From the NCBI GenBank assembly GCA_951812585.1, contig OX638318.1, forward strand, positions 1,794,380 to 1,858,379: a stretch of DNA of 64,000 nucleotides, in the 5' to 3' direction. The DNA comes from Rhodothermales bacterium (GTDB taxonomy: Bacteria > Bacteroidota > Rhodothermia > Rhodothermales > Bin80). The notes under the pieces are model-generated. The model made no database searches. It was not told where the DNA came from and saw only the letters and a list, made by a program, of their open reading frames with translations. The position numbers were made by a program, and so were the translations under genes. Positions 22,820 through 34,063 of the stretch are shown piece after piece. Numbering within the stretch: position 1 is the first letter of the stretch; each line of letters starts with the position of its first letter.

Positions 22820-23647
22820 ATGGTAGAGGTTTCGGAGTGGCTTTCAACCCTGCGCCACAGGATTCAGTACACACTCTTTGGCGACGAGTCCCCGTACGCC
22901 AGGCTGGTCGACATCACGGTCATCGTTGCGATTCTGGCAAGCGTCCTGGTGGTGATGTTGGAGAGCATACCCCGTTATAACGCGGCGTTTGGGCGGCAGC
23001 TACACATCGCTGAGTGGGTATTTACGATCATCTTTACGGTCGAGTACCTCTTTCGGCTGCTTTGCGCCAAGAGGCCCAAAGTTTATGCTCGCAGCTTTTA
23101 CGGCATCGTAGACCTGATGGCGGTCGTACCGACCTATATCAGTTTCTTTCTTCCGGGTGCTGAAACGCTGCTGGTGATACGACTCTTGCGCCTGCTCCGC
23201 GTGTTCAGAATACTCAAGCTCGTCGCGTTCCTGGACGCAGGCAACGTGCTTATAGATGTGCTTAAGCAAAGCGCACGCAGCATCGCGATTTTTTTGACCG
23301 CCGTTTTTGTGCTGGTGACCATACTGGGTTCACTGATCTACCTCGTGGAAGGGGCAGAAAACGGGTACGACACCATTCCGCGCAGCATCTACTGGGCCGT
23401 CGTGACATTGACAACAGTCGGATATGGTGACATTTCTCCGCAAACCCCGTTGGGACAGGCCCTGGCGGCGGTCGTGATGGTCATCGGATACTCCATCATC
23501 GCCGTGCCTGCTGGCATTGTATCACTGGGATTTTCACGGGCCATAAGGCCCAGGAAGGGAGGCAAGGTGTGTACGTGGTGCCACGAAAAACGTCACGATC
23601 CTAAAGCCCAGTTTTGCCACAACTGCGGCACCAAGCTAATCACATGA
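22820..23647 (+). CDS. voltage-gated-type potassium channel (ion transporter)
   Basis: S4 RLLRLLRVFRILKL, filter TTVGYGD, C-terminal zinc ribbon. Confidence 0.93.
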   Translation: MVEVSEWLSTLRHRIQYTLFGDESPYARLVDITVIVAILASVLVVMLESIPRYNAAFGRQLHIAEWVFTIIFTVEYLFRLLCAKRPKVYARSFYGIVDLMAVVPTYISFFLPGAETLLVIRLLRLLRVFRILKLVAFLDAGNVLIDVLKQSARSIAIFLTAVFVLVTILGSLIYLVEGAENGYDTIPRSIYWAVVTLTTVGYGDISPQTPLGQALAAVVMVIGYSIIAVPAGIVSLGFSRAIRPRKGGKVCTWCHEKRHDPKAQFCHNCGTKLIT

Positions 23648-26218
23648 AAGGAAGCATTCCCTGGCTGGGGGGCGCAGGTTGTAGTGTGTGCTCATAACCT
23701 GTCCGTACGCCCCTGCCGTAGCCACGAGGAGCACATCGCCTTCAGAAGTTTTGGGCAATCGTCGTCCGTGCCCGAGGATGTCGCCAGTTTCGCAGATGGG
23801 GCCGACCACTTCGGCGGTGATGGCAGGTGGCGCATCCAGGTGTGACAGGTTTGCGATGGCATGGTACGCGCCATAGAGCGCGGGACGAATCAGGGAGTTC
23901 ATGCCGGTTTCCACGCCGACGTAGTGCATGGATCCCTTCTCTTTCACCTGCGTGACGCGCGCCAAAAGGACACCGGATTCCGCGACAAGCAGTCGTCCGG
24001 GCTCCATCCACAGGGCAAAGTGCGGGTGCGCTTGTCTGAAGCTGCCAAGGTCCTCGGCCAGCGCATCCAGGTCCAGCGCCGTGGCACCCGGGCGCTCCGG
24101 CACACCAAAGCCGCCCCCGATGTTGAGAATGCGCACCTCAGGGAAGTCTTCGGCAAGCGACGCCAGGAAGTAGGCCGTTTCTGTCCAGGTGCTGCTCATG
24201 AGGATGCCGCTGCCCACATGCGCATGCAGTCCAATGATGGTCACACTAATATCCGCGGCGAGCCTTTGCAGCCTAGGCAACGCGTCGGGGGCGATTCCGA
24301 ACTTGGACTGCGTGCCGGCGGTCCGCACATGTTTATGGTGTCCGTGACCGCGACCAGGGTCAACCCGTATGATGATCTTTCGGCCAGCGAACACATCAGG
24401 CCACAGCTCCAGTGGGCGCGTGCTGTCCAGCGTTACGTAGCCCGCGAGGCGAAATCCGGTCTCGTACTCCTCCCGCGGCGCAAAATTGGGTGTGAACAGG
24501 ATCCGCTCTGGATCCAAGTCTGGAAACAGCCGATGGGCAAGCGCCAGCTCCCCCGGCGACACGCATTCAAAGCCAAGTCCTGCCTCGTAGAAGACACGCA
24601 GCACGTCGGGGTGCAGGCTCGCTTTCATCGCATAGAAGCAGCGCGCTACCGGTGCGAGCCCAAGGACTTGCCTGGCAGCCGCCCGCAGTGTGGCTTCATC
24701 ATATACATAGCACGGAGAATGCTCTTTCGCAATGCGCAACAGGTCGGTGCGCCGCTGCTTCCACCACAGGGCCCGTTCCGTCGGCAGATCAGCGTCAAAG
24801 AGCTCCCGGTAGGTCTTGCCGAACAGGCCATTGCGGCTCATGTGACCGAAGATCTGGCTGTGCAGCTTGGCGACCAGGCGCGCCGCCTGGGACTCGTGGA
24901 CCACAAAGGTGAGGTTGCGGTCACTGGCGGCCTGCGTCACGAGGAAGACCTGCTGCTCGCTCAGGGCTTCCAGCGCCGGGCCCAGCTCGTGCAGCACGCT
25001 GCGAATCTGGCGCCCCACCAGGCTGACGGCGGCGCAGGACTGAATCGGCTGCGCACTGCAAAACATGTTGAGGTCTGACAGCAGCGACTCCAGCTTAGAA
25101 GGCGAAAGCGCGACCCCGTGTATGGGGTCGATCGACATGGTGACGTTCGTTTCCGATGTGGCGACATGGCCGATGGACAGGCCATGGCGTTCGAACAATC
25201 CGCAGACGCGCGCCAAAAAGCCTACGGAGTGCCACATGCGTGGCGTTTCTATGGCAATCAGGGTTAGGCCCGCCAGCGTAGAGATGGCCTTGACCTGTGC
25301 GCCGAAGGTTTCTACGTCCGGCGCGATGACCGTCCCAGGCAACTGCGGCGCAAGGGTGGATCGAATATGCAGCGGGATGCCGGCGCTTCGCAGCGGGTCG
25401 ATGCAGCGTGCATGCAGCACTTCGGCCCCTGTGCTGGCAAGCTCCTCGGCCTCATCGTATTCCAGGTGCCGAAGTAGGCGGGCGGACGGAATGATGCGCG
25501 GGTCAGCCGTGAACATTCCCGGCACATCCGTCCAGATCTCCACATGTTCCGCTTCAAGCTTCGCGGCCAAATAGGACGCCGAAGTATCGGAACCGCCCCA
25601 CCCGATGAGCACCGTTTCGCCCCGCCGATTGCGCGCGATGAAGCCTTGCGTAAGCGTGATGCAGTCCGAGGCCAATGCGGCCTTCAGGGCCATGTCCGGC
25701 GCGTGTTCGCACTGATTGGACAGGTACTGCTCGTGCAGCGGCGCGCGGCTATCTGTGTGGGCCTGCAGCAAAGTGCGGGCATCACGCCAAGTTGTTTGCA
25801 GTCCTTGCCGCCTCAAAAAGGCTGCGCCGAGCGTGGTCAGCATCAGCTCGCCACCAGACAGTATGCGCGCTCTGACAGCCGGGCCGACTTCCTGTGTGAG
25901 CGAGATGCCGTAGGCCAGCCGCGTGATGCTGTCGAAGTAATGTGCCAATAGCGCCCGGCCGTCGACTTCGAGTGCGCTTGCGAGCGCTAGGTGCCGCTCT
26001 TTGATGGCCTCGAGTAATGCTTCGTGTGCATTGGCCAGAGCAGCACTCAGGAGCGCCTCCAGTTCGCGAGAAACGCGTTCCATGGCCGAGCACACCAGGA
26101 CAGGGCGCTTGCCTGCCTCGAGGCGTTCCTGCGCAATGGAAGCGACCGTATCCCAGTGTGCGCGTGTCGACACGCTTGTGCCGCCAAACTTTGCCACCAC
26201 ATACGGAGATGCATCCAC
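23636..26218 (-). CDS. bifunctional aspartate kinase / diaminopimelate decarboxylase (LysC-LysA fusion)
   Basis: KFGGTSV, GGSDTSA, WTDVPG, ACT domains, then YAMKA, FECVSPGE, HAHVGSG, EPGR, GPICETGD. Confidence 0.96.
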   Translation of the reverse strand: MDASPYVVAKFGGTSVSTRAHWDTVASIAQERLEAGKRPVLVCSAMERVSRELEALLSAALANAHEALLEAIKERHLALASALEVDGRALLAHYFDSITRLAYGISLTQEVGPAVRARILSGGELMLTTLGAAFLRRQGLQTTWRDARTLLQAHTDSRAPLHEQYLSNQCEHAPDMALKAALASDCITLTQGFIARNRRGETVLIGWGGSDTSASYLAAKLEAEHVEIWTDVPGMFTADPRIIPSARLLRHLEYDEAEELASTGAEVLHARCIDPLRSAGIPLHIRSTLAPQLPGTVIAPDVETFGAQVKAISTLAGLTLIAIETPRMWHSVGFLARVCGLFERHGLSIGHVATSETNVTMSIDPIHGVALSPSKLESLLSDLNMFCSAQPIQSCAAVSLVGRQIRSVLHELGPALEALSEQQVFLVTQAASDRNLTFVVHESQAARLVAKLHSQIFGHMSRNGLFGKTYRELFDADLPTERALWWKQRRTDLLRIAKEHSPCYVYDEATLRAAARQVLGLAPVARCFYAMKASLHPDVLRVFYEAGLGFECVSPGELALAHRLFPDLDPERILFTPNFAPREEYETGFRLAGYVTLDSTRPLELWPDVFAGRKIIIRVDPGRGHGHHKHVRTAGTQSKFGIAPDALPRLQRLAADISVTIIGLHAHVGSGILMSSTWTETAYFLASLAEDFPEVRILNIGGGFGVPERPGATALDLDALAEDLGSFRQAHPHFALWMEPGRLLVAESGVLLARVTQVKEKGSMHYVGVETGMNSLIRPALYGAYHAIANLSHLDAPPAITAEVVGPICETGDILGHGRRLPKTSEGDVLLVATAGAYGQVMSTHYNLRPPARECFLSCD

Positions 26219-26442
26219 AGCGAACCTGCTCTGAAGCGGCTTGCGCGTAATGCCGCAGGCAGACGCGGCAGTGCACCCATGAGGCGATTGCAGAGGGAGT
26301 ACTACCGAATAATACCGCCCCGCTACCGACTACTACCCGCTACTACTGCCGCCCAGCACATCCATTAAACGCTTGCAGGTCCGACGGGGTTCAATGGGCA
26401 CGCATGTGCCAAGTGCGCTGCGTTTCCTCGCACTTTGCAAAT

Positions 26443-26740
26443 CGTGCTTGCCCGAAAAAAAAGGAGGGTCGGAGGCCAAGTTCAGGCTGATTGGCGGTGA
26501 GCATTCGGCGCATGGCCATGGTCAGGGAGGTGTACAGGCCAGCGGTACCCGGTTTTGAGCGAATCAAGCACCGAATCATGTCGCTGAATCGCCTGATTTG
26601 TGCCAAGCTGATATAGCGCGCCCCGCTCCCCGTTACAAGGAGTATGAGGACCTCGCTCTTCTGGTGACGCTGGGAAGTTCTTACGGATTCTTCTTGCGGG
26701 CTTGGCACCGGCGTGCTTCTTGCTTCTTCAGAATCTGACC
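26443..26740 (-). pseudogene. 3' end remnant of ISNCY-like transposase plus terminal inverted repeat
   Basis: Minus frame 26740-26681 reads GQILKKQEARRCQARKKNP*, resembling the basic C-terminal tail of this transposase family as recalled; about 220 bp of 3' region then the IR. Confidence 0.6.
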
Positions 26741-27210
26741 TTTCGCGCCCGATAAGAATCGGGGGCTCGCCGACGGCGGTGATTCCGAAGGCTAAGCGTC
26801 GGGGTTCGCTGCCCGTTACAAGCTGTGCCTGCTGAACGAAGCGGGGACTCGCACCGAGCCCGGAGAGATCGGCGTGCTCTGGAACCGGGAAGGTCTCTAC
26901 GCGTCGCACCTGAGAAGATGGTACCGCCCGCGTGAACGTGGAGCGTGCTACGGCGCGATCTGGGTCGGCAAGGAGCTGGAGCAGGCCAAGGCCGTCGTAG
27001 AGATTCAAAAAAAAAGTCTGCACGCTGTTTGGCAGCAGCAGCGAGACCGAAGCCGGGCAGCTATGAAGGAGAGGGTGATGCTACTGCATCCGATCGTGGG
27101 CGCGAAAGCGGCCTTTCGGTCTGTGGGCATCTCCTGTGCCAGCTACGACAGAAGCCGGCGTCCGGCGATGTCGGGGCCCAGGCGCCGCCGCTAACGAACC
27201 ACTGAAGCGT
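26737..27210 (+). pseudogene. IS3-family transposase 5' remnant (orfA plus start of orfB), copy 1
   Basis: Frameshifted VIPKAKRR/FAARYKLCLLNEAGTRTEPGEIGVLWNREGLYASHLRRW, ELEQAKAVVEIQKK, A9G slippery tract (27007-27016), orfB-like HPIVGAKAAFRSVGISCASY. Confidence 0.8.
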
Positions 27211-27227
27211 GATCCAGAGGTGACCGC

Positions 27228-29534
27228 ATGAAGTCCACACGACATCACACTGATTTCAAGACGAGCCTGTCTCCAACTCCTTGGCACATCTTCTGCGTCG
27301 TGCGGTTCTTCGTACCGGTCGGGGTGCCGATGGCGCTGGTTCTGATGATGCTGGGGCATCCGCTCTATGCGCAGCCTTATCAGGAGCCTCCGCTTTCTCT
27401 GCAGTTCCTGCAGGAGCTGGAAGAAGACCCTGTAGAGCGCGTTTCCGCGGCCGATCTTTTACGCGACACGTTGGCAGCCCCGGTTGTCACCGGCTATGCG
27501 GTCAATCTGGAGCGGGACTATCGTGCACTGGTAGCGCTGTACGCATCAACGAATGGAGACAGTTGGAATACAAAAACGCATTGGGATACAACGCTTTCGG
27601 TGAGTGACATTAGAGCCACCAGGCTTGATTCCTTTTATGGTGTGACGGCAAGTAGTGCGGCCGGAGTGACGGCAATCGATTTGCACGTAAACAACCTAGG
27701 CGGGCTGCTTCCGCCCGCACTTGGCAATCTCTCGGCATTGCAAGTGCTATCGCTGAACGGTAATTACATAACCGGGCCGATCCCGCCCGCACTCGGCAAT
27801 CTCTCGGCATTGCAAGTGCTGAATCTGAGCTTCAATAGGCTGACCGGGCCGATCCCGCCCGCACTCGGCAATCTCTCGGCATTGCAAGTGCTGAATCTGA
27901 GCTTCAATGAGAAATTGCCGCACGAGAATTATGGACTGACCGGGCCGATTCCGCCTGAACTCGGCAATCTCTCGGCATTGCAAGTGCTGGATCTGGAATT
28001 CAATCGGCTGTGGGGGCCGCTTCCGCCCGAAATCGGCAATCTCTCGGCATTGCAAGTGCTGGATCTGAGCCTCACAGATCTGACGGGGCCGATCCCGCCC
28101 GCACTCGGCAATCTCTCGGCATTGCAAGTGCTGGATCTGAGCCGCACAGATCTGACGGGGCCGATCCCGCCCGCACTCGGCAATCTCTCGGAATTGCAAG
28201 CGCTGAGGCTGGACGGCAATTCGCTGACGGGGCCGATCCCGCCCGCACTTGGCAATCTCTCGGAATTGCAAGAGCTGGATCTGGGCTACAATTATTCGCT
28301 GACCGGGCCGATCCCGCCTGACCTCGGCAATCTCTCGGCATTGCGAGAGCTGGATCTGTCCTACAATTCGCTGACGGGGCCGCTTCCGCCCGCACTCGGC
28401 AATCTCTCGGAATTGCAAGAGCTGAGGCTGTACGATAATGACATAACCGGGCCGCTTCCGCCCGAAATAGGCAATCTCTCGGAATTGCAAGAGCTGTGGC
28501 TGTACGATAATGACATAACCGGGCCGCTTCCGCCCGAAATAGGCAATCTCTCGGAATTGCAAGAGCTGAGGCTGTACGATAATGACATAACCGGGCCGCT
28601 TCCGCCCGCACTCGGCAATCTCTCGGCTTTGCAAGATCTGAATCTGCACAACAATTCGTTGACCGGGCCGCTTCCGACCGAACTCGGCAATCTCTCGGCT
28701 TTGCAAGCGCTGTTTCTGTCCAACAATTCGCTAACGGGGCCGCTTCCGACCGAACTCGGCAACCTCTCGGCTTTGGAATGGCTGAATCTGTCCGACAATT
28801 CGCTGGCAGGTGTGCTTCCGCGGAGTCTCATGCAGCTGGACAGTCTAAACACTTTCTACTTTGGCGGCCAGGAACTGTGCGCACCGGCGGACAGTGACTT
28901 CCAGGCGTGGTTGAGCAGCATCCCGAGTACAGACGGGCCCACCTGCGCACCCTTGCAGCTTACAGGTACAATTGCAAATCAAACCTTTCGCAGAGCACAG
29001 CCCATTGCGCCGCTGGTCTTGCCTGAAGCCTCGGGAGGTGTGTCGCCGATCAATTACACGCTGGCTCCTACACTCCCGACAGGCCTGAGCTTTGATTCGG
29101 CAACGCGCACGATCAGCGGTACGCCGACGGAAGTCACGCAAGGTCCCTTACCCTACACATACACGGCGACCGACACGAACGGATCCGCCGACAGTTTGCA
29201 CTTCACTATTGAGGTGTTTGGACCATTGGCCGCTGAGCACGAGACATTGCCAGAATCGTTTGCCGTACATGGTAATTATCCGAATCCCTTCCGTGCATGG
29301 ACCCGCATCGTGTTCGATCTGCCTTGGCCGGCGCGCGTGACCGTTGAAGTCATGGACCTAACGGGCCGGCGCGTGCTTGCTATAGCGCCGGTGGATCTGT
29401 CCGCTGGGTGGGCGCATAACATTGCAATAAGCGGTCTTACACTTTCTTCGGGACTCTATCTGTACCGCCTGATGGCCGCGCCGCCCGAGAGCCACGCAAC
29501 GTATCGGATGGGCCGCTTCGTGCACATTCGCTAA
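27228..29534 (+). CDS. secreted plant-type LRR protein (15 GNLS repeats) + putative Ig domain + T9SS type-A sorting domain, copy 1
   Basis: ALVALYASTNG N-cap, 24-aa LTGPIPPELGNLSALQVLDLxxN repeats, LPTGLSFDSATRTISGTPT, GNYPNPF...LSSGLYLYRL. Confidence 0.93.
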   Translation: MKSTRHHTDFKTSLSPTPWHIFCVVRFFVPVGVPMALVLMMLGHPLYAQPYQEPPLSLQFLQELEEDPVERVSAADLLRDTLAAPVVTGYAVNLERDYRALVALYASTNGDSWNTKTHWDTTLSVSDIRATRLDSFYGVTASSAAGVTAIDLHVNNLGGLLPPALGNLSALQVLSLNGNYITGPIPPALGNLSALQVLNLSFNRLTGPIPPALGNLSALQVLNLSFNEKLPHENYGLTGPIPPELGNLSALQVLDLEFNRLWGPLPPEIGNLSALQVLDLSLTDLTGPIPPALGNLSALQVLDLSRTDLTGPIPPALGNLSELQALRLDGNSLTGPIPPALGNLSELQELDLGYNYSLTGPIPPDLGNLSALRELDLSYNSLTGPLPPALGNLSELQELRLYDNDITGPLPPEIGNLSELQELWLYDNDITGPLPPEIGNLSELQELRLYDNDITGPLPPALGNLSALQDLNLHNNSLTGPLPTELGNLSALQALFLSNNSLTGPLPTELGNLSALEWLNLSDNSLAGVLPRSLMQLDSLNTFYFGGQELCAPADSDFQAWLSSIPSTDGPTCAPLQLTGTIANQTFRRAQPIAPLVLPEASGGVSPINYTLAPTLPTGLSFDSATRTISGTPTEVTQGPLPYTYTATDTNGSADSLHFTIEVFGPLAAEHETLPESFAVHGNYPNPFRAWTRIVFDLPWPARVTVEVMDLTGRRVLAIAPVDLSAGWAHNIAISGLTLSSGLYLYRLMAAPPESHATYRMGRFVHIR
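27709..28810 (+). repeat. 72-bp intragenic tandem repeat array (LRR modules), copy 1
   Basis: Near-invariant ggcaatctctcgg scaffold recurring every 72 nt, in frame with the LRR gene. Confidence 0.92.
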
Positions 29535-30069
29535 GGGAGACATCCGCGGTCCGCTGTAATGTCTAAATCGCAGGCGAGCACCTTCTGCAAGGTGTCCAGC
29601 ACGAAGAGCCGCCATAGACGCAGGCCCGGGCGACCACGCCGCAGATTGACCTTCGCGCCCAAGTGCTCCCGCAGGATCGCGAACACACGCGCGTGCTGCG
29701 GTGCGTGAAGCGGTTCTGCAGTCCACGGAGAACGTTCGGAATATCGTCTCTGGACCGAGGATCCAACGTGATCTCTCCAATGGGCGTATGCCCAAGCGCA
29801 AACGGTGGCTCGAAGATCGCGCGCATAGCAGTAAAACGGGCGAATGTCGGGGCAGAAGCGTAAGAATTCCGCCAAGAACAAGCCCAGGATCAGAAAACGG
29901 TGCAGCATTCGCTGAAACAACGTAGGCCGCCGTTGGGGGAAACGGCCCCGAAAGCAGCCGCTCCACACCCCCAAATGCCCGATCTTTTGCCGCTTGCACC
30001 CATATATCCGCCCTATGCGCCCACAACTGCCGATTTTCAGGGCCAATCAGGCATTTTGGGGCAAGCATG
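29531..30069 (-). pseudogene. 5' remnant of ISNCY-like transposase with terminal IR, copy 1 (frameshifted)
   Basis: MRAIFEPPFALGHTPIGEITLDPRSRDDIPNVLRGLQ / RVFAILREHLG...GRPGLRLWRLFVL...LACDLD, truncated at the LRR stop; IR at 30054-30067. Confidence 0.8.
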
Positions 30070-30312
30070 AATTCGTCATTCATTAATTATGTATGCCGGG
30101 TTGTGACTGGCACTGCCAGCAGCGATCTGATTGTCTGGGGCCGCTATGCTGCTTGCTGCGCGATTTACACACTGTGTGCTTTGCACGCCGGAGCTTTATG
30201 CTTGTAATGACTGAGACCGCTCAGCCGCTTGTGTTGAAGCGGTCCGGGACTTAGCAGGCAGCTTGGCCAGGCATTCCAGCCTGGTCTCTCCGTTCCCTTG
30301 ATCCTGCGCACT

Positions 30313-30800
30313 ATGGACAAATCGGACCTTTCGCGCCCGATAAGAATCGGGGGGGGGGGCTTGCCGACGGCGGTGATTCCGAAGGCTAAGCGTCGGGGTT
30401 CGCTGCCCGTTACAAGCTGTGCCTGCTGAACGAAGCGGGGGCTCGCACCGAGCCCGGAGAGATCGGCGTGCTCTGGAACCGGGAAGGTCTCTACGCGTCA
30501 CACCTGACAAGATGGCACCGCCCGCGTGAACGTGGAGCGTGCTACGGCGCGATCCGGGTCGGCAAGGAGCTGGAGCAGGCCAAGGCCGTCGTAGAGATTC
30601 AAAAAAAGTCTGCACGCTGTTTGGCAGCAGCAGCGAGACCGAGGCCGGGCAGCTATGAGGGAGAGGGTGATGCTACTGCATCCGATCGTGGGCGCGAAAG
30701 CGGCCTTTCGGTCTGTAGGGGTTCCCGTGCCGGCTACGGCAGAAGCCGGTGTCCGGCGATGCCGGGACCTTGGCGCCGCCGCTAACTAACCACTGAAGCG
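30313..30800 (+). pseudogene. IS3-family transposase 5' remnant, copy 2
   Basis: Near-identical to 26737-27210; retains candidate start ATG 30313 (MDKSDLSRPIRIGGGGLPTAVIPKAKRR); G11 tract at 30349-30359; A7G at 30601-30608. Confidence 0.8.
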
Positions 30801-30818
30801 TGATCCAGAGGTGACCGC

Positions 30819-33476
30819 ATGAAGTCCACAGGTCACACTGATTTCAAGACGAGCCTGTCTCCAACTCCTTGGCACATCTTCTGCGTCGTGCGGTTCTTCG
30901 TACCGGTCGGGGTGCCGATGGCGCTGGTTCTGATGATGCTGGGGCATTCGCTCTATGCGCAGCCTTATCAGGAGCCTCCGATTTCTCTGCAGTTCCTGCA
31001 GGAGCTGGAAGAAGGCCCTGTAGAGCGCGTTTCCGCGGCCGATCTTTTACGCGACACGTTGGCAGCCCCGGTTGTCACCGGCTATGCGGTCAATCTGGAG
31101 CGGGACTATCGTGCACTGGTAGCGCTGTACGCATCAACGAATGGAGACAGTTGGAATACAAATACGCATTGGGATACAACGCTTTCGGTGAGTGACATTA
31201 GAGCCACCAGGCTTGATTCCTTTTATGGTGTGACGGCAAGTAGTGCGGCCGGAGTGACGGCAATCGATTTGCACTTAAACAACCTAGGCGGGCTGCTTCC
31301 GCCCGCACTTGGCAATCTCTCGGCATTGCAAGTGCTGGATCTGCGCAGCAATTCGCTGACGGGGCCGATCCCTTCCGAGCTCGGCAATCTCTCGGCATTG
31401 CAAGTGCTGAATCTGAGCTTCAATGAGAAATTGCCGCACGAGAATTATGGACTGACCGGGCCGATTCCGCCTGAACTCGGCAATCTCTCGGCATTGCAAG
31501 TGCTGGATCTGGAATTCAATCGGCTGTGGAGGCCGATCCCGCCCGAAATCGGCAATCTCTCGGAATTGCACGAGCTGTCTCTGGGCGACAATTCGCTGAC
31601 GGGGCCGATCCCGCCCGAACTCGGCAACCTCACGGAATTGCAAGCGCTGGATCTGTCCCGCAATTCGCTGGCGGGGCCGATCCCGCCCGAACTCGGCAAT
31701 CTCTCGGCATTGCAAGTGCTGGATCTGAGCCGCAATTATTGGCTGATCGGGTCGATCCCTTCCGAACTCGGCAATCTTTCGCAATTGCAAGAGCTGTATC
31801 TGTACAACAATTCGCTGACGGGGCCGCTTCCGCCCGAAATTGGCAATCTCTCGGAATTGCAAGAGCTGTATCTGTACAACAATTCGCTGACGGGGCCGCT
31901 TCCGCCCGAAATCGGCAATCTCTCGGAATTGCACGAGCTGTCTCTGGGCGAAAATTCGCTAACGGGGCCGCTTCCGCCCGAAATAGGCAATCTCTCGGAA
32001 TTGGAACGGCTGTTGCTGTCCAACAATTCGCTAACGGGGTCGATCCCTTCCGAACTCGGCAATCTTTCGGAATTGCAAGAGTTGTATCTGTCCTACAATT
32101 CGCTGACGGGGCCGCTTCCGCCTGAACTCGGCAATCTCTCGGAATTGCAAGAGCTGTATCTGTACAACAATTCGCTGACGGGGCCGCTTCCGCCCGAAAT
32201 AGGCAATCTCTCGAAATTGCAACAGCTGTATCTGTTCGGCAATTCGCTGACGGGGTCGCTTCCGCCCGAAATCGGCAATCTCTCGGAATTGCAATGGCTG
32301 TATCTGTCCTACAATTCGCTGACGGGGCCGCTTCCGCCCGAAATCGGCAATCTCTCGGCTTTGCAAGTGCTGGATCTGGGCGACAATTCGCTGACGGGGT
32401 CGCTTCCGCCCGAAATCGGCAATCTCTCGGAATTGCAAGATCTGCGGCTGTACAACAATGGGCTGACCGGGCCGATCCCGCCCGAAATCGGCAATCTCTC
32501 GGAATTGCACGAGCTGTCTCTGCCCTACAATTCGCTGACGGGGTCGCTTCCGCCTGAAATAGGCAATCTCTCGAAATTGCACGAGCTGTCTCTGGGCGAA
32601 AATTCGCTAACGGGGCCGCTTCCGCCTGAAATAGGCAATCTCTCGAAATTGTGGACGCTGTCGCTGCACAGCAATTCGCTGACGGGGCCGCTTCCGCCTG
32701 AAATAGGCAACCTCTCGGCTTTGCGAACGCTGTGGCTGCAAGACAATTCGCTGACGGGTGCGCTGCCGCGGAGTCTCATGCAGCTGGACAATCTAAGCTG
32801 GTTCCGATTTGCCAGCCAGGAACTGTGCGCACCGGCGGACAATTACTTCCAGGCGTGGCTGAGCAGCATCTCGAATACAGACGGGGCCAACTGTGCACCT
32901 TTGGCTTTGGATCTTAAAGGTACAATTGCAAATCAAACCTTTACCAGAGCACAACCCATTGCCCCGCTGGTCTTGCCTGAAGCCTCGGGAGGCGTGTCGC
33001 CGATCAATTACACGCTGGCTCCCACACTGCCGACAGGCCTGAGCTTTGACTCGGCAACGCGCACGATCAGCGGTACGCCGACGGGAGTCACGCAAGGTCC
33101 CTTGCCCTACACATACACAGCGACCGACGCGATCGGATCCGCCGGCAGTTTGCACTTCACTATTACTATTGAGGTGTTTCCACTACCGGAATCGTTTGCC
33201 GTGCAGGGCAATTACCCGAATCCCTTCCGTGCATGGACCCACATCGTGTTCGATCTGCCTTGGCCGGCGCGCGTGACCGTTGAAGTCATGGACCTAACGG
33301 GCCGGCGCATGCTTGCTATAGCGCCGGTGGATCTGTCCGCTGGATGGGCGCATAACATTGCAATAAGCGGCCTTACCCTTTCTTCGGGACTCTACATGTA
33401 TCGCCTGATGGCCGCGCCGTCCGGACGCAAGAGCCACGCAACGTATCGGATGGGTCGCTTCGTGCACATTCGCTAA
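30819..33476 (+). CDS. secreted plant-type LRR protein (20 GNLS/T repeats) + putative Ig domain + T9SS type-A sorting domain, copy 2
   Basis: Same architecture and near-identical termini as 27228..29534, with a different LRR array. Confidence 0.93.
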   Translation: MKSTGHTDFKTSLSPTPWHIFCVVRFFVPVGVPMALVLMMLGHSLYAQPYQEPPISLQFLQELEEGPVERVSAADLLRDTLAAPVVTGYAVNLERDYRALVALYASTNGDSWNTNTHWDTTLSVSDIRATRLDSFYGVTASSAAGVTAIDLHLNNLGGLLPPALGNLSALQVLDLRSNSLTGPIPSELGNLSALQVLNLSFNEKLPHENYGLTGPIPPELGNLSALQVLDLEFNRLWRPIPPEIGNLSELHELSLGDNSLTGPIPPELGNLTELQALDLSRNSLAGPIPPELGNLSALQVLDLSRNYWLIGSIPSELGNLSQLQELYLYNNSLTGPLPPEIGNLSELQELYLYNNSLTGPLPPEIGNLSELHELSLGENSLTGPLPPEIGNLSELERLLLSNNSLTGSIPSELGNLSELQELYLSYNSLTGPLPPELGNLSELQELYLYNNSLTGPLPPEIGNLSKLQQLYLFGNSLTGSLPPEIGNLSELQWLYLSYNSLTGPLPPEIGNLSALQVLDLGDNSLTGSLPPEIGNLSELQDLRLYNNGLTGPIPPEIGNLSELHELSLPYNSLTGSLPPEIGNLSKLHELSLGENSLTGPLPPEIGNLSKLWTLSLHSNSLTGPLPPEIGNLSALRTLWLQDNSLTGALPRSLMQLDNLSWFRFASQELCAPADNYFQAWLSSISNTDGANCAPLALDLKGTIANQTFTRAQPIAPLVLPEASGGVSPINYTLAPTLPTGLSFDSATRTISGTPTGVTQGPLPYTYTATDAIGSAGSLHFTITIEVFPLPESFAVQGNYPNPFRAWTHIVFDLPWPARVTVEVMDLTGRRMLAIAPVDLSAGWAHNIAISGLTLSSGLYMYRLMAAPSGRKSHATYRMGRFVHIR
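31296..32760 (+). repeat. 72-bp intragenic tandem repeat array (LRR modules), copy 2
   Basis: Same scaffold as copy 1, 20 modules counted from the translation. Confidence 0.92.
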
Positions 33477-34009
33477 GGGAGACATCCGCGGCCCGCTGTA
33501 ATGTCTAAATCGCAGGCGAGCGCCTTCTGCAAGGTGGCCAGCACGAAGATCCGCCATAAACACAAGCCCGGGTGACTACGCCGCAGAGTGACCTTCGCAC
33601 CCAAGTGCTCCCGCAAGATCGCGAACACGCGCGTGCTGCGGTGCGTGAAGCGGTCCTGCAGTCCACGGAGAACGGCCGGAATATCGTCTCTGGACCGAGG
33701 GTCCAACGTGATCTCTCCAATGGGCGTATGCCCAAGCGCAAGCGGTGGCTCGAAGATCGCGCGCATAGCAGTACAACGGGCGAAGGTCGGGGCAGAAGCG
33801 TACGCATCCCACCAATAACAGGCCCAGGATCAGAAAACGGTGCAGCATTCGCTGAAACAACGTAGGCCGCCGTTGGCGGGAACGGCCCCGAAAGCAGCCG
33901 CTCTACACCCCCAAATGCCCGATCTTTCGCCGCTTGCACCCGTATACCCGCCCTATGCGCCTACAACTGTTGGTCTGCAGGGCCAATCAGGCATTTTCGG
34001 GCAAGCATT
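33473..34009 (-). pseudogene. 5' remnant of ISNCY-like transposase with terminal IR, copy 2
   Basis: Continuous 97-aa ORF 33473..33766 (MRAIFEPPLALGHTPIGEITLDPRSRDDIP...LACDLD); IR at 33994-34007. Confidence 0.8.
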
Positions 34010-34063
34010 AAATACCACGAGCATTGCAATAACGCACGGCACTGCGAAGGCCTTAGTGCAGTG

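Follow-up and report, generated by a model that had tools for sequence, protein, structure and literature searches.

In the genome of a sponge-symbiont Rhodothermales bacterium, a dead 1.9-kb ISNCY element is represented by its two ends, which enclose a secreted LRR gene in place of a transposase, at positions 26444-34008 of the 64,000-nucleotide stretch of DNA analysed here (the window; coordinates are those of the window unless marked "genome"). We think it fairly probable that this region is a decayed non-autonomous derivative of the 1.9-kb IS, which we take to belong to the ISDol1-like group of ISfinder, and that it is organised as a mobile insertion cassette (MIC) which moved in trans in the past and then decayed. 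It would be a known kind of hitch-hiking cassette, which probably moved in the past and for which no movement is seen today. That it was once a mobile cassette is likely; that it could be mobilised today is unlikely.

Ends of the element

The features of the region are as follows.

26438-26443, no strand: left flank CAAATC, in the TSD register of the family (register from 16 intact copies)
26444-26740, minus: ISNCY 3' end (tail), with tip G at 26444, IR core at 26445-26459 and subterminal motif at 26487-26495
26681-26740, minus: coding part of the tail, with the final 19 transposase codons (26684-26740) and their stop (26681-26683) (from alignment with the intact IS tail)
26741-27195, plus: internal IS3-family fragment, covering the bulk of orfA and the first part of orfB, with no IS3 terminus
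27228-29534, plus: LRR gene A, 768 aa (Pfam LRR_1/LRR_8/LRR_14, He_PIG)
29561-30068, minus: ISNCY head of unit A, IS nt 1-~519, with IR core at 30053-30067 (2 mismatches) and tip at 30068
30069-30319, no strand: unique 251-bp spacer between the units, starting with GAATTC, with no other copy in the genome
30320-30785, plus: start of unit B, with 9 nt of ISNCY tail (30320-30328, aatcggacc) followed by the IS3 fragment known from unit A
30819-33476, plus: LRR gene B, 885 aa, architecture as gene A
33503-34008, minus: ISNCY head of unit B, with IR core at 33993-34007 and tip at 34008
34009-34014, no strand: right flank TAAATA, a perfect fit to the TANNTA target

The terminal core of the ISNCY consensus is 15 nt long, TGCTTGCCCGAAAAA. 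The tail end reads G-TGCTTGCCCGAAAAA at 26444-26459, matching the core at 15 of 15 positions with the correct tip, and the head IRs match its reverse complement at 14 of 15 positions in unit B and 13 of 15 in unit A. With up to two mismatches allowed, the genome has 41 occurrences of the 15-mer and a reversed-sequence control has 4; the match to the ISNCY core is not due to chance. The perfect 14-nt IR given in the preliminary description (26445-26458 / 33994-34007) was recovered, and its two arms are real ISNCY termini, as found in the 16 intact copies. The third copy described at 30054-30067 (TTTTGGGGCAAGCA) is present, with one mismatch. The subterminal motif ctgattggc reported near both ends was found at 26487-26495 and, as its reverse complement, at 30042-30050, with a further reverse copy at 33982-33990.

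The outer parts of the IS that are kept, 297 bp of tail and 507 bp of head, have their IRs in correct mutual orientation and are colinear on the intact 1908-bp IS. As previously proposed, the ~90-codon head and the ~19-codon tail come from the same IS in the same orientation, and the catalytic middle is replaced by an IS3 remnant and an LRR gene. Transposase residues ~91-455 are gone, and the element is four times as long as the IS owing to its cargo. It has the structure of a MIC, with IRs inverted around the IS3 fragment and the LRR gene and only stubs of the transposase. The tail is 87% identical to another at genome 1303901-1304203, which runs on into transposase residues 381-472.

The TSD of ISNCY is a 6-bp TANNTA located one base outside the 15-nt core. 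The left flank, CAAATC, is a poor fit to this target; it agrees at 4 of 6 positions with TAAATA after unit B and at 4 of 6 with GAATTC after unit A, and neither possible unit is surrounded by a 6-bp TSD. The AAAT and AAT direct repeats described earlier do exist, but they lie in the wrong register. This lack of a TSD around the cassette speaks for an IS graveyard that was never mobile as a unit, a reading that we consider possible and rather unlikely. An ISNCY copy at the locus, or two neighbouring copies in direct orientation, would have been riddled by an IS3 insertion and by deletions, which by chance fused an adjacent LRR gene between the ends. Dispersed ISNCY remnants would then have given rise to the other copies of the module through homologous recombination or gene conversion with one another, and unequal crossing-over would have added to these. 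The abundance of IS remnants in the genome also fits it.

Content of the two units

A module made of the IS3 piece, the LRR gene and the IS head is present twice in the window, on either side of the spacer, and a third copy, which is truncated, is located at 2.916 Mb of the genome (c2916). Along their length, units A and B diverge by 2-12%. Identity to unit A is 94% for the start of unit B, and the LRR proteins are 98% identical in their N-terminal part and 88% in their C-terminal part. Unit B is an incomplete cassette that has lost its left end and kept 9 nt of tail.

By blastn and tblastx the IS3 fragment maps to nt ~145-660 of the 1660-bp IS3 element of this genome, at 74-76% nucleotide identity; it has no IR and is not a complete IS3, and its ORF has no Pfam or NCBIfam match. 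Several other readings of the module edges were discarded. TGACC (26736-26740) is not an IS3 terminal repeat, the IS3 piece being internal, and AATCTGACC is not an IS3 end: it is ISNCY tail sequence, also kept in unit B. GCCCGATAAG at 30335-30344, considered as a surrogate ISNCY end used in one-ended transposition, is out of register with the boundary of homology between the units. A simple tandem duplication of module and spacer was rejected too, there being no second 251-bp spacer after unit B.

In the head of unit A, transposase codons 1-90 (29561-29826) are present and frameshifted, and the inner junction reads ccgctgtaat-gtc at 29560/29561. In unit B, residues 1-90 (33503-33766, minus strand) are in a single frame with 80% identity to the intact 474-aa transposase (tblastn), and match NF033593 at positions 1-69 (E 7.7e-6, 24.8 bits). 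As a whole, the unit B head aligns with nt 1-519 of the intact IS at 83% identity.

The product of LRR gene A has a signal-peptide-like N-terminus, 24-residue LRRs, a He_PIG Ig domain and a T9SS C-terminal sorting domain. Both products score above the 23-bit cut-off of the T9SS type A family TIGR04183 in the genome scan, with 27.5 (A) and 27.4 (B) bits, the whole-protein scores being 23.5 and 22.6 bits; the genome has 42 TIGR04183 matches, 40 of them over the cut-off. Scores against the XopAE, XopAC and XopL equivalogs reach at best 230, 180 and 116 bits (NCBIfam cut-offs 600, 450 and 500) and come from LRR stretches only. The likeness to Xanthomonas T3SS LRR effectors is one of LRR fold and not of membership. 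Today the locus is predicted simply to code for one or two LRR proteins that are on the surface or secreted; the LRR gene was found in none of the RNA runs searched for expression.

Intact relatives of the IS

The search for an intact donor-type IS, suggested at the outset, was successful in genomes of a sister genus. There, at least 16 intact copies of 1908 bp share the termini seen in the window and carry a 474-aa ISNCY transposase, and a 6-bp TANNTA TSD flanks 15 of 16 full-length copies. The intact transposase scores 410 bits against NF033593 (cut-off 325 bits), which bears out the assignment to ISNCY with a secondary likeness to IS5. Intact copies were found only in these sister-genus genomes, Rhodothermales MAGs in which the copies are many, near-identical and apparently active. 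The genome under study has no intact ISNCY transposase, its best match being frameshifted at 251 bits, and so the cognate transposase that would act in trans is lacking here; the earlier suggestion that an intact transposase could mobilise the element finds no support in this genome.

Long IR pairs in the sister genomes proved to be nested IS21, intron or recombinase insertions and not cargo cassettes, and the occurrence there of nested insertions only, within this IS, is in line with the graveyard explanation. Two of the four over-long pairs hold nested mobile elements with IS21-like genes in both, one of them carrying a 697-aa ORF as well. In the third, IS nt 1184 is the insertion point of a 424-aa ORF, a candidate group II intron, and the fourth (G013 1294434-1297008) is also interrupted at nt 1184. 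None was retained as MIC-like cargo.

Further copies of the module and the c927 derivative

Unit A, unit B and the copy at genome 2916546 have in common the inner junction ccgctgta(a/g)t-gtc(t/g)aaatcgc, c2916 with two point differences, and the module therefore arose once and was then copied. All three copies stop at the IS tip, where their heads have the same derived base, and their flanks differ (GAATTC, TAAATA and TAAATC), two of the three fitting TANNTA. Such exact ends in unrelated flanks argue against copying by recombination between dispersed remnants. TAAATC of c2916, which agrees with the window's left flank at 5 of 6 positions, was considered as its partner and rejected, since an unrelated gene (ORF 2915243-2916022) starts with it and the two flanks of the window locus belong together by synteny.

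A 667-bp derivative, c927, lies at genome 927150-927816 with a perfect TACCTA on both sides. In order, it is made up of IS nt 1-527, a 135-nt insert of LRR-gene 3' flank and the last 20 nt of the tail; the insert is identical to the private 3' flank of the LRR paralog p2371, and the head breakpoints of c927 and of the window module are 8 nt apart. The TSD that marks insertion as a unit, absent at the window locus, is thus found around a deletion derivative. LRR-locus DNA between these ends with a perfect TSD makes it very probable that such a non-autonomous element was mobilised in trans at least once. It also speaks against the graveyard explanation, both ends of the IS enclosing LRR-flank DNA at an unrelated locus; by our estimate the chance that the two breakpoints fall so close within a 1.9-kb IS is about 1%. 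c927 may have moved only after internal deletion, and we infer the movement of the full LRR-bearing cassette. Of the cargo transposon first proposed, a past mobile cassette remains likely, given the tip-ended copies and the c927 TSD, and present mobility is unlikely. c927 is fixed in all four runs examined, with an extra 354-bp deletion in X16, and neither an empty site nor a larger progenitor was found at its locus in these runs.

The search for other LRR genes with the same ends gave little: the head is common only to the remnant at 2.916 Mb, and four full-length LRR paralogs have no ISNCY ends. The C-terminal part of LRR A (wA) is 94.5% identical to p318 and p2371 and 87.6% to LRR B (wB), and the unit B head is 95.9% identical to an ordinary IS remnant at 170851 of the genome (c170) and 92.7% to the wA head. 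Because the wB head is nearer to c170 than to wA, gene conversion among IS copies has blurred the history of the locus, and this evident gene conversion, of the LRR C-terminus as well as the head, is a process that the graveyard explanation invokes.

Variation between populations and comparison with relatives

The left and right junctions were recovered in all eight sequencing runs (sampled 2016-2024), and the spacer and start of unit B in X1 and X2 only. The other six have a contig running from tail through IS3 to the LRR N-terminus at single-copy depth, and appear to carry one unit only. That six of eight runs have neither the spacer nor the 5' part of unit B could suggest that the two-unit arrangement is a repeat mis-assembly; we regard this as highly improbable, as X1 contigs span 30039-30392 and 30363-30607 with 0 and 1 differences, the spacer is present with 8 differences in X2, a sponge metagenome obtained independently in 2016, and the units themselves have diverged. 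The difference in unit number between symbiont populations, which occurs without any new junction as the graveyard explanation would have it, is better explained by homologous recombination.

No excision, circle, empty-site joint or new insertion flank appears among the joints and loose ends listed for the eight runs, and the module junction was found in neither genome_contigs nor metagenome_contigs. These results bear on the reading of the element as a cargo transposon that is currently mobilisable by transposase in trans and actively spreading LRR genes. The well-kept tail and unit B head IRs and the apparently active sister-genus copies with the same ends speak for it; with the tip base mutated in all three heads and no intact transposase in the genome as well, we find it very unlikely.

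The nearest genomes are G001 (~70-79% nucleotide identity), and G013 and G006 (80% amino acid identity). In G001, of the same genus, and in the sister genus, lysC/lysA adjoin Sel1-repeat genes with no LRR gene or ISNCY between them. An empty site was seen as gene order only; the intergenic DNA is too diverged to show one at nucleotide level.

Discussion

Sponge symbionts have large families of eukaryote-like repeat proteins and many transposases. To our knowledge, a link between the two has seldom been shown at the base-pair level. Here one LRR gene family is tied to defined IS ends, with a donor-type IS, a footprint of past mobilisation in trans and a copy number that varies among host individuals. 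The locus documents an IS that became a gene carrier and then a fossil; it is not a new mechanism. In the reading we favour, that of a decayed MIC, an LRR paralog with its 3' flank would have been joined to IS nucleotide ~527. The cassette would have been moved in trans by ISNCY transposase while active copies existed, leaving tip-ended copies in differing flanks and the 667-bp internally deleted derivative with its perfect 6-bp duplication. All ISNCY transposase genes of the genome would then have decayed, and later change would have been limited to deletions, to gene conversion involving LRR and IS paralogs, and to unequal recombination, the last of which would have produced one-unit and two-unit variants in different sponge hosts.

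A wider proposal, which we advance tentatively and consider doubtful, is that the eukaryote-like LRR genes of the lineage were spread in trans by this ISNCY-derived MIC, possibly also between related Rhodothermales with the active 1.9-kb IS. If true, MIC formation would be a route for expansion of host-interaction gene families in sponge symbionts, and c927 a surviving footprint of it.

The window element is a new, decayed example of a MIC. MIC231 of Bacillus cereus (Chen et al. 1999, as cited in PMC4337579) is one such element and, as far as it is described there, it resembles the window element in having IS-derived IRs around a passenger gene, no transposase inside and a need for cognate transposase in trans. 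Relative to that description, the ends in the window are of ISNCY type and long (297 and 507 bp), with transposase stubs and an IS3 fragment; the locus has no TSD, the genome has no cognate transposase, and mobilisation in trans is deduced from c927 only. The TALE MICs of Xanthomonas, bounded by IRs of TnXax1 (Tn3 family), likewise show repeat-rich host-interaction genes bracketed by transposon IRs, tandem cassette clusters, solo IRs beside paralogs and paralogs without IRs (PMC4337579), and amplification after a single insertion is weighed there as well as transposition. They differ in belonging to Tn3 with a 5-bp TSD, against ISNCY with a 6-bp TANNTA, and in carrying T3SS effectors of a plant pathogen, against proteins with a T9SS C-terminal domain in a sponge symbiont; the window element also has far fewer copies (PMC4337579).

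The 1908-bp, single-ORF ISNCY element with 6-bp duplications, which we take to be ISDol1-like, has the same termini and head and tail sequence as the window element. As in composite transposons, the cargo lies between two ends of the same IS, both facing outward; in contrast to these, the cassette has one head and one tail fragment and not two IS copies, and it may have originated from an LRR gene flanked by two ISNCY copies in direct orientation. c927 is comparable to MITEs and other internally deleted IS derivatives, whereas the window element has a complete foreign gene as cargo. Among the many IS remnants of the genome, a 33-nt IR-IR relic at genome 546173-546205 is an internally deleted form of the same IS.

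Organization of the locus

The genome is complete (3.2 Mb) and, among public genomes, closest to Rhodothermales MAGs; the window covers positions 1,794,380-1,858,379; coordinates below are those of the window unless marked as genome positions. The runs that contain this stretch are sponge metagenomes, or runs under one common host label. Two units of ~3.4-3.7 kb, each with a ~460 bp IS3-like fragment and one LRR gene, are located between the lysC/lysA and Sel1-repeat genes:

23636-26218, minus strand: lysC/lysA fusion gene, left neighbour of both units
26732-30067: unit A
27228-29534: LRR gene of unit A (768 aa)
30320-34007: unit B
30819-33476: LRR gene of unit B (885 aa)
35542 onward: Sel1-repeat genes, right neighbours of both units

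On the minus strand both units close with ~507 bp terminating in the repeat TTTT(C/G)GGGCAAGCA, and the segment 26444-26740, left of unit A, has the inverse repeat TGCTTGCCCGAAAA at its start. The perfect 14-nt inverted repeat reported in the preliminary description (26445-26458 and 33994-34007), its third copy (30054-30067, one mismatch) and the ctgattggc motif (26487-26495 and 30042-30050) are all located at these positions. A plain tandem duplication of the units is excluded by the spacer 30069-30319, a unique, single-copy sequence. Unit B lacks an ISNCY 3' end (tail), apart from the nine bases aatcggacc at 30320-30328. In a same-genus relative (G001) and in the sister genus, lysC/lysA lies directly upstream of the Sel1-repeat genes with neither LRR gene nor ISNCY between them; this is a comparison of gene order only, the intergenic DNA of the compared relatives being too diverged to show a base-level empty site.

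Origin of the ISNCY ends

Unit B carries, within its right end, an ORF of 97 codons that matches positions 1-69 of NF033593 (ISNCY transposase). This ISNCY is represented in the genome by eight copies of its 5' end (head) and six of its tail. Truncation or frameshift affects every match; the best for the transposase reaches 251 bits versus a cut-off of 325, and no intact element or transposase was found in the genome. The intact donor envisaged in the preliminary description is therefore missing here; intact copies were found in two sister-genus genomes, G006 (OZ253559.1) and G013 (OZ244626.1), each of which has 10 or more copies of the head at 79-84% identity. Full-length copies number 16, each of 1908 bp with one gene for a 474-aa protein (410 bits on NF033593, with a weaker IS5 likeness of 91 bits); several are 99.9% identical to the reference copy. 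Their termini are G-TGCTTGCCCGAAAAA ... TTTTTCGGGCAATCA-C, and a perfect 6-bp TANNTA duplication surrounds 15 of them. Mapped on this intact IS, 33503-33766 corresponds to transposase residues 1-90 (80% identity) and 26684-26740 to the final 19 codons of its gene; the stop codon occupies 26681-26683, and a ~237 bp 3' untranslated tail comes after it. Head and tail have a common orientation and both come from one ISNCY type, as originally described; the comparison revealed neither different termini nor an unrelated origin of the two fragments.

Two more repeat families of this genome, opening with TGCTTGCCCGCAAAC... and TGCTTGCCCGAAACA..., share the same TGCTTGCCCG core (~9 and ~5 copies; for example at genome 899508, 1532642, 1657434, 1666465 and 2731142, and at 896938, 1553769, 2001106 and 3176672). 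Both are likely related IS families whose termini resemble one another. A 33-nt relic at genome 546173-546205, flanked by TAAGTA and TAACTG, consists of just two ISNCY inverted repeats around GGG; it is an element reduced by extreme deletion or, alternatively, an excision-like footprint. In the sister genus, the apparently active ISNCY itself receives other insertions: IS21-like istA/istB genes are found inside copies at two loci (L080 and L079, the latter G013:2896800-2905200), a 697-aa ORF at L079 is a possible serine recombinase, and a third locus (L081) has, at IS nt 1184, an ORF of 424 aa that possibly encodes a group II intron reverse transcriptase. Two sister-genus copies are broken at nt 1184. 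Over-long ISNCY inverted repeat pairs in these genomes were rejected as cassettes, being nested insertions.

The IS3 piece and the LRR genes

The segment 26741-~27195 aligns at ~75% identity to an orfA/orfB-bearing IS3-family element of 1660 bp, over nt ~145-660 of the latter. It is an internal fragment that takes in the larger part of orfA and the beginning of orfB. The nine bases AATCTGACC on its left were considered as an IS3 end and rejected, since they are ISNCY tail sequence. The three genome copies of the 1660-bp element (regions 333424, 711470 and 130229) are 99.8% identical and look recently active, unlike the uniformly dead ISNCY copies.

Both LRR proteins start with a signal-peptide-like N-terminus, contain 24-residue LRRs and a He_PIG Ig domain, and end in a T9SS sorting tail (TIGR04183: ~27 bits each versus a cut-off of 23, among 42 matches in the genome). 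Matches of the window proteins to XopAE, XopAC and XopL are far under the cut-offs, and this likeness is one of LRR fold only.

A shared junction and a mosaic history

In both units the 3' flank of the LRR gene meets ISNCY at IS nt ~519, where ccgctgta(a/g)t is followed directly by gtc(t/g)aaatcgc. The same junction, save two point differences, is found at genome 2916035-2916646 in an ISNCY-derived copy (c2916) that holds just the last 100 bp of an LRR gene, because a 1.65-kb IS inserted there. The heads of unit A, unit B and c2916 have a common changed tip base and differing flanks (GAATTC, TAAATA and TAAATC, respectively). The junction sequence had no match in two public contig collections.

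Four larger LRR/T9SS paralogs, ~90% identical over 3.1-3.4 kb, are dispersed in the genome:

2367015-2371139 (genome): LRR/T9SS paralog
319877-323292 (genome): LRR/T9SS paralog
155212-159362 (genome): LRR/T9SS paralog
396607-400686 (genome): LRR/T9SS paralog

Three of them (p2371, p318 and p159) encode 1375-1444 aa. The four have LRR and C-terminal parts in common with the window genes up to ccgctgtaat, past which they run into their own flank; with the family of the window genes they have the C-terminal region and 140 nt of 3' flanking sequence in common. In p2371, an IS3-type element directly follows the gene. The expectation that other LRR loci would carry the same ends is thus borne out in part: truncated c2916 has the head, whereas the four larger paralogs are without ISNCY.

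Identity between units A and B differs along their length:

N-terminal part of LRR gene: 98%
IS3 piece: 94%
Head: 92.7% (closer partners: unit A with c2916, 96.4%; unit B with the copy at genome 170851, 95.9%)
C-terminal part of LRR gene: 87.6% (closer partner: unit A with p318/p2371, 94.5%)

From these identities, gene conversion with dispersed paralogs is evident, which limits reconstruction of the history of the locus.

A probable trace of past movement

An internally deleted ISNCY derivative of 667 bp (c927; genome 927150-927816, L082 751-1417) consists of IS nt 1-527, 135 nt and the final 20 nt of the tail, and is flanked on both sides by TACCTA, a perfect duplication. The 135 nt are 3' flank of the LRR paralogs and include 12 nt private to p2371, reaching the site of its present IS3-type element. 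Judging by this structure, transposition very probably inserted here an element that had no transposase and held LRR-locus DNA between ISNCY ends. The head breakpoint (nt 527) lies 8 nt from that of the window module (nt 519), and one ~190-nt deletion would turn one head junction into the other. Because such proximity has an estimated chance of ~1%, we infer that c927 and the window module come from one ancestral cassette. c927 is fixed in the four runs compared; in run X16 it has an additional 354-bp internal deletion.

Mobile insertion cassettes (MICs) are defined as passenger genes between IS-type inverted repeats, without transposase, that are moved by the cognate enzyme. The structure at this locus fits this definition. 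Most similar to it among known systems are the TALE-carrying MICs of Xanthomonas, which, like this locus, show tandem clusters, solo inverted repeats and paralogs without inverted repeats (PMC4337579).

Mobility and unit number in symbiont populations

In the family register, the flanks are CAAATC/TAAATA for the whole region and CAAATC/GAATTC for unit A, each matching at 4 of 6 positions. The AAAT and AAT direct repeats, previously proposed as flanking duplications, are the shared core of these flanks and do not count as evidence, since the target preference fixes positions 2 and 5. Both outer junctions of the region were present in every one of the eight runs, which come from five studies or samples. 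Among the joints listed for these runs, none connected 26444 to 34008 in either sense, and the excision circle or empty site sought in reads did not appear. Flanks, genome transposases and the eight runs give no sign of present mobility. Of the cargo-transposon reading, this much stands: the cassette is genuine, derives from ISNCY, has an LRR gene as its passenger and probably moved in the past; current mobility finds no support.

Only two runs cover the spacer and the 5' part of unit B: X1, which is probably the source sample, with 0-1 differences, and X2, a sponge metagenome of 2016, with 8. The other six (X3, X4, X6, X15, X16 and X17) show no or almost no depth over 30210-31091. The contig 26609-27748 (tail, IS3 piece, N-terminus) is at single-copy flank depth in X15 (22.3 vs 20.1), X16 (21 vs 22.8) and X4 (9.7 vs 8.6), ambiguous in X17 (62.4 vs 39.4), and above flank depth in X3 and X6. 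X15, X16 and X17 lack the A-specific LRR sequence 27858-28151 and retain B-specific 3' pieces. Symbiont populations from different host samples thus vary in unit number: X1 and X2 have two units, and the other six runs most likely one chimeric unit each, as expected from unequal homologous recombination between units; contigs show presence better than absence, and the one-unit reading rests on consistent zero depth in six runs.

At a loose end at 26469 in X16, one contig links a window-type ISNCY tail to another flank (…GTAGGTA-G-TGCTTGCTCGAAAGAGGG…) that is absent from this genome; the contig may stem from a tail copy specific to one strain, or from a relative of this organism within the metagenome.
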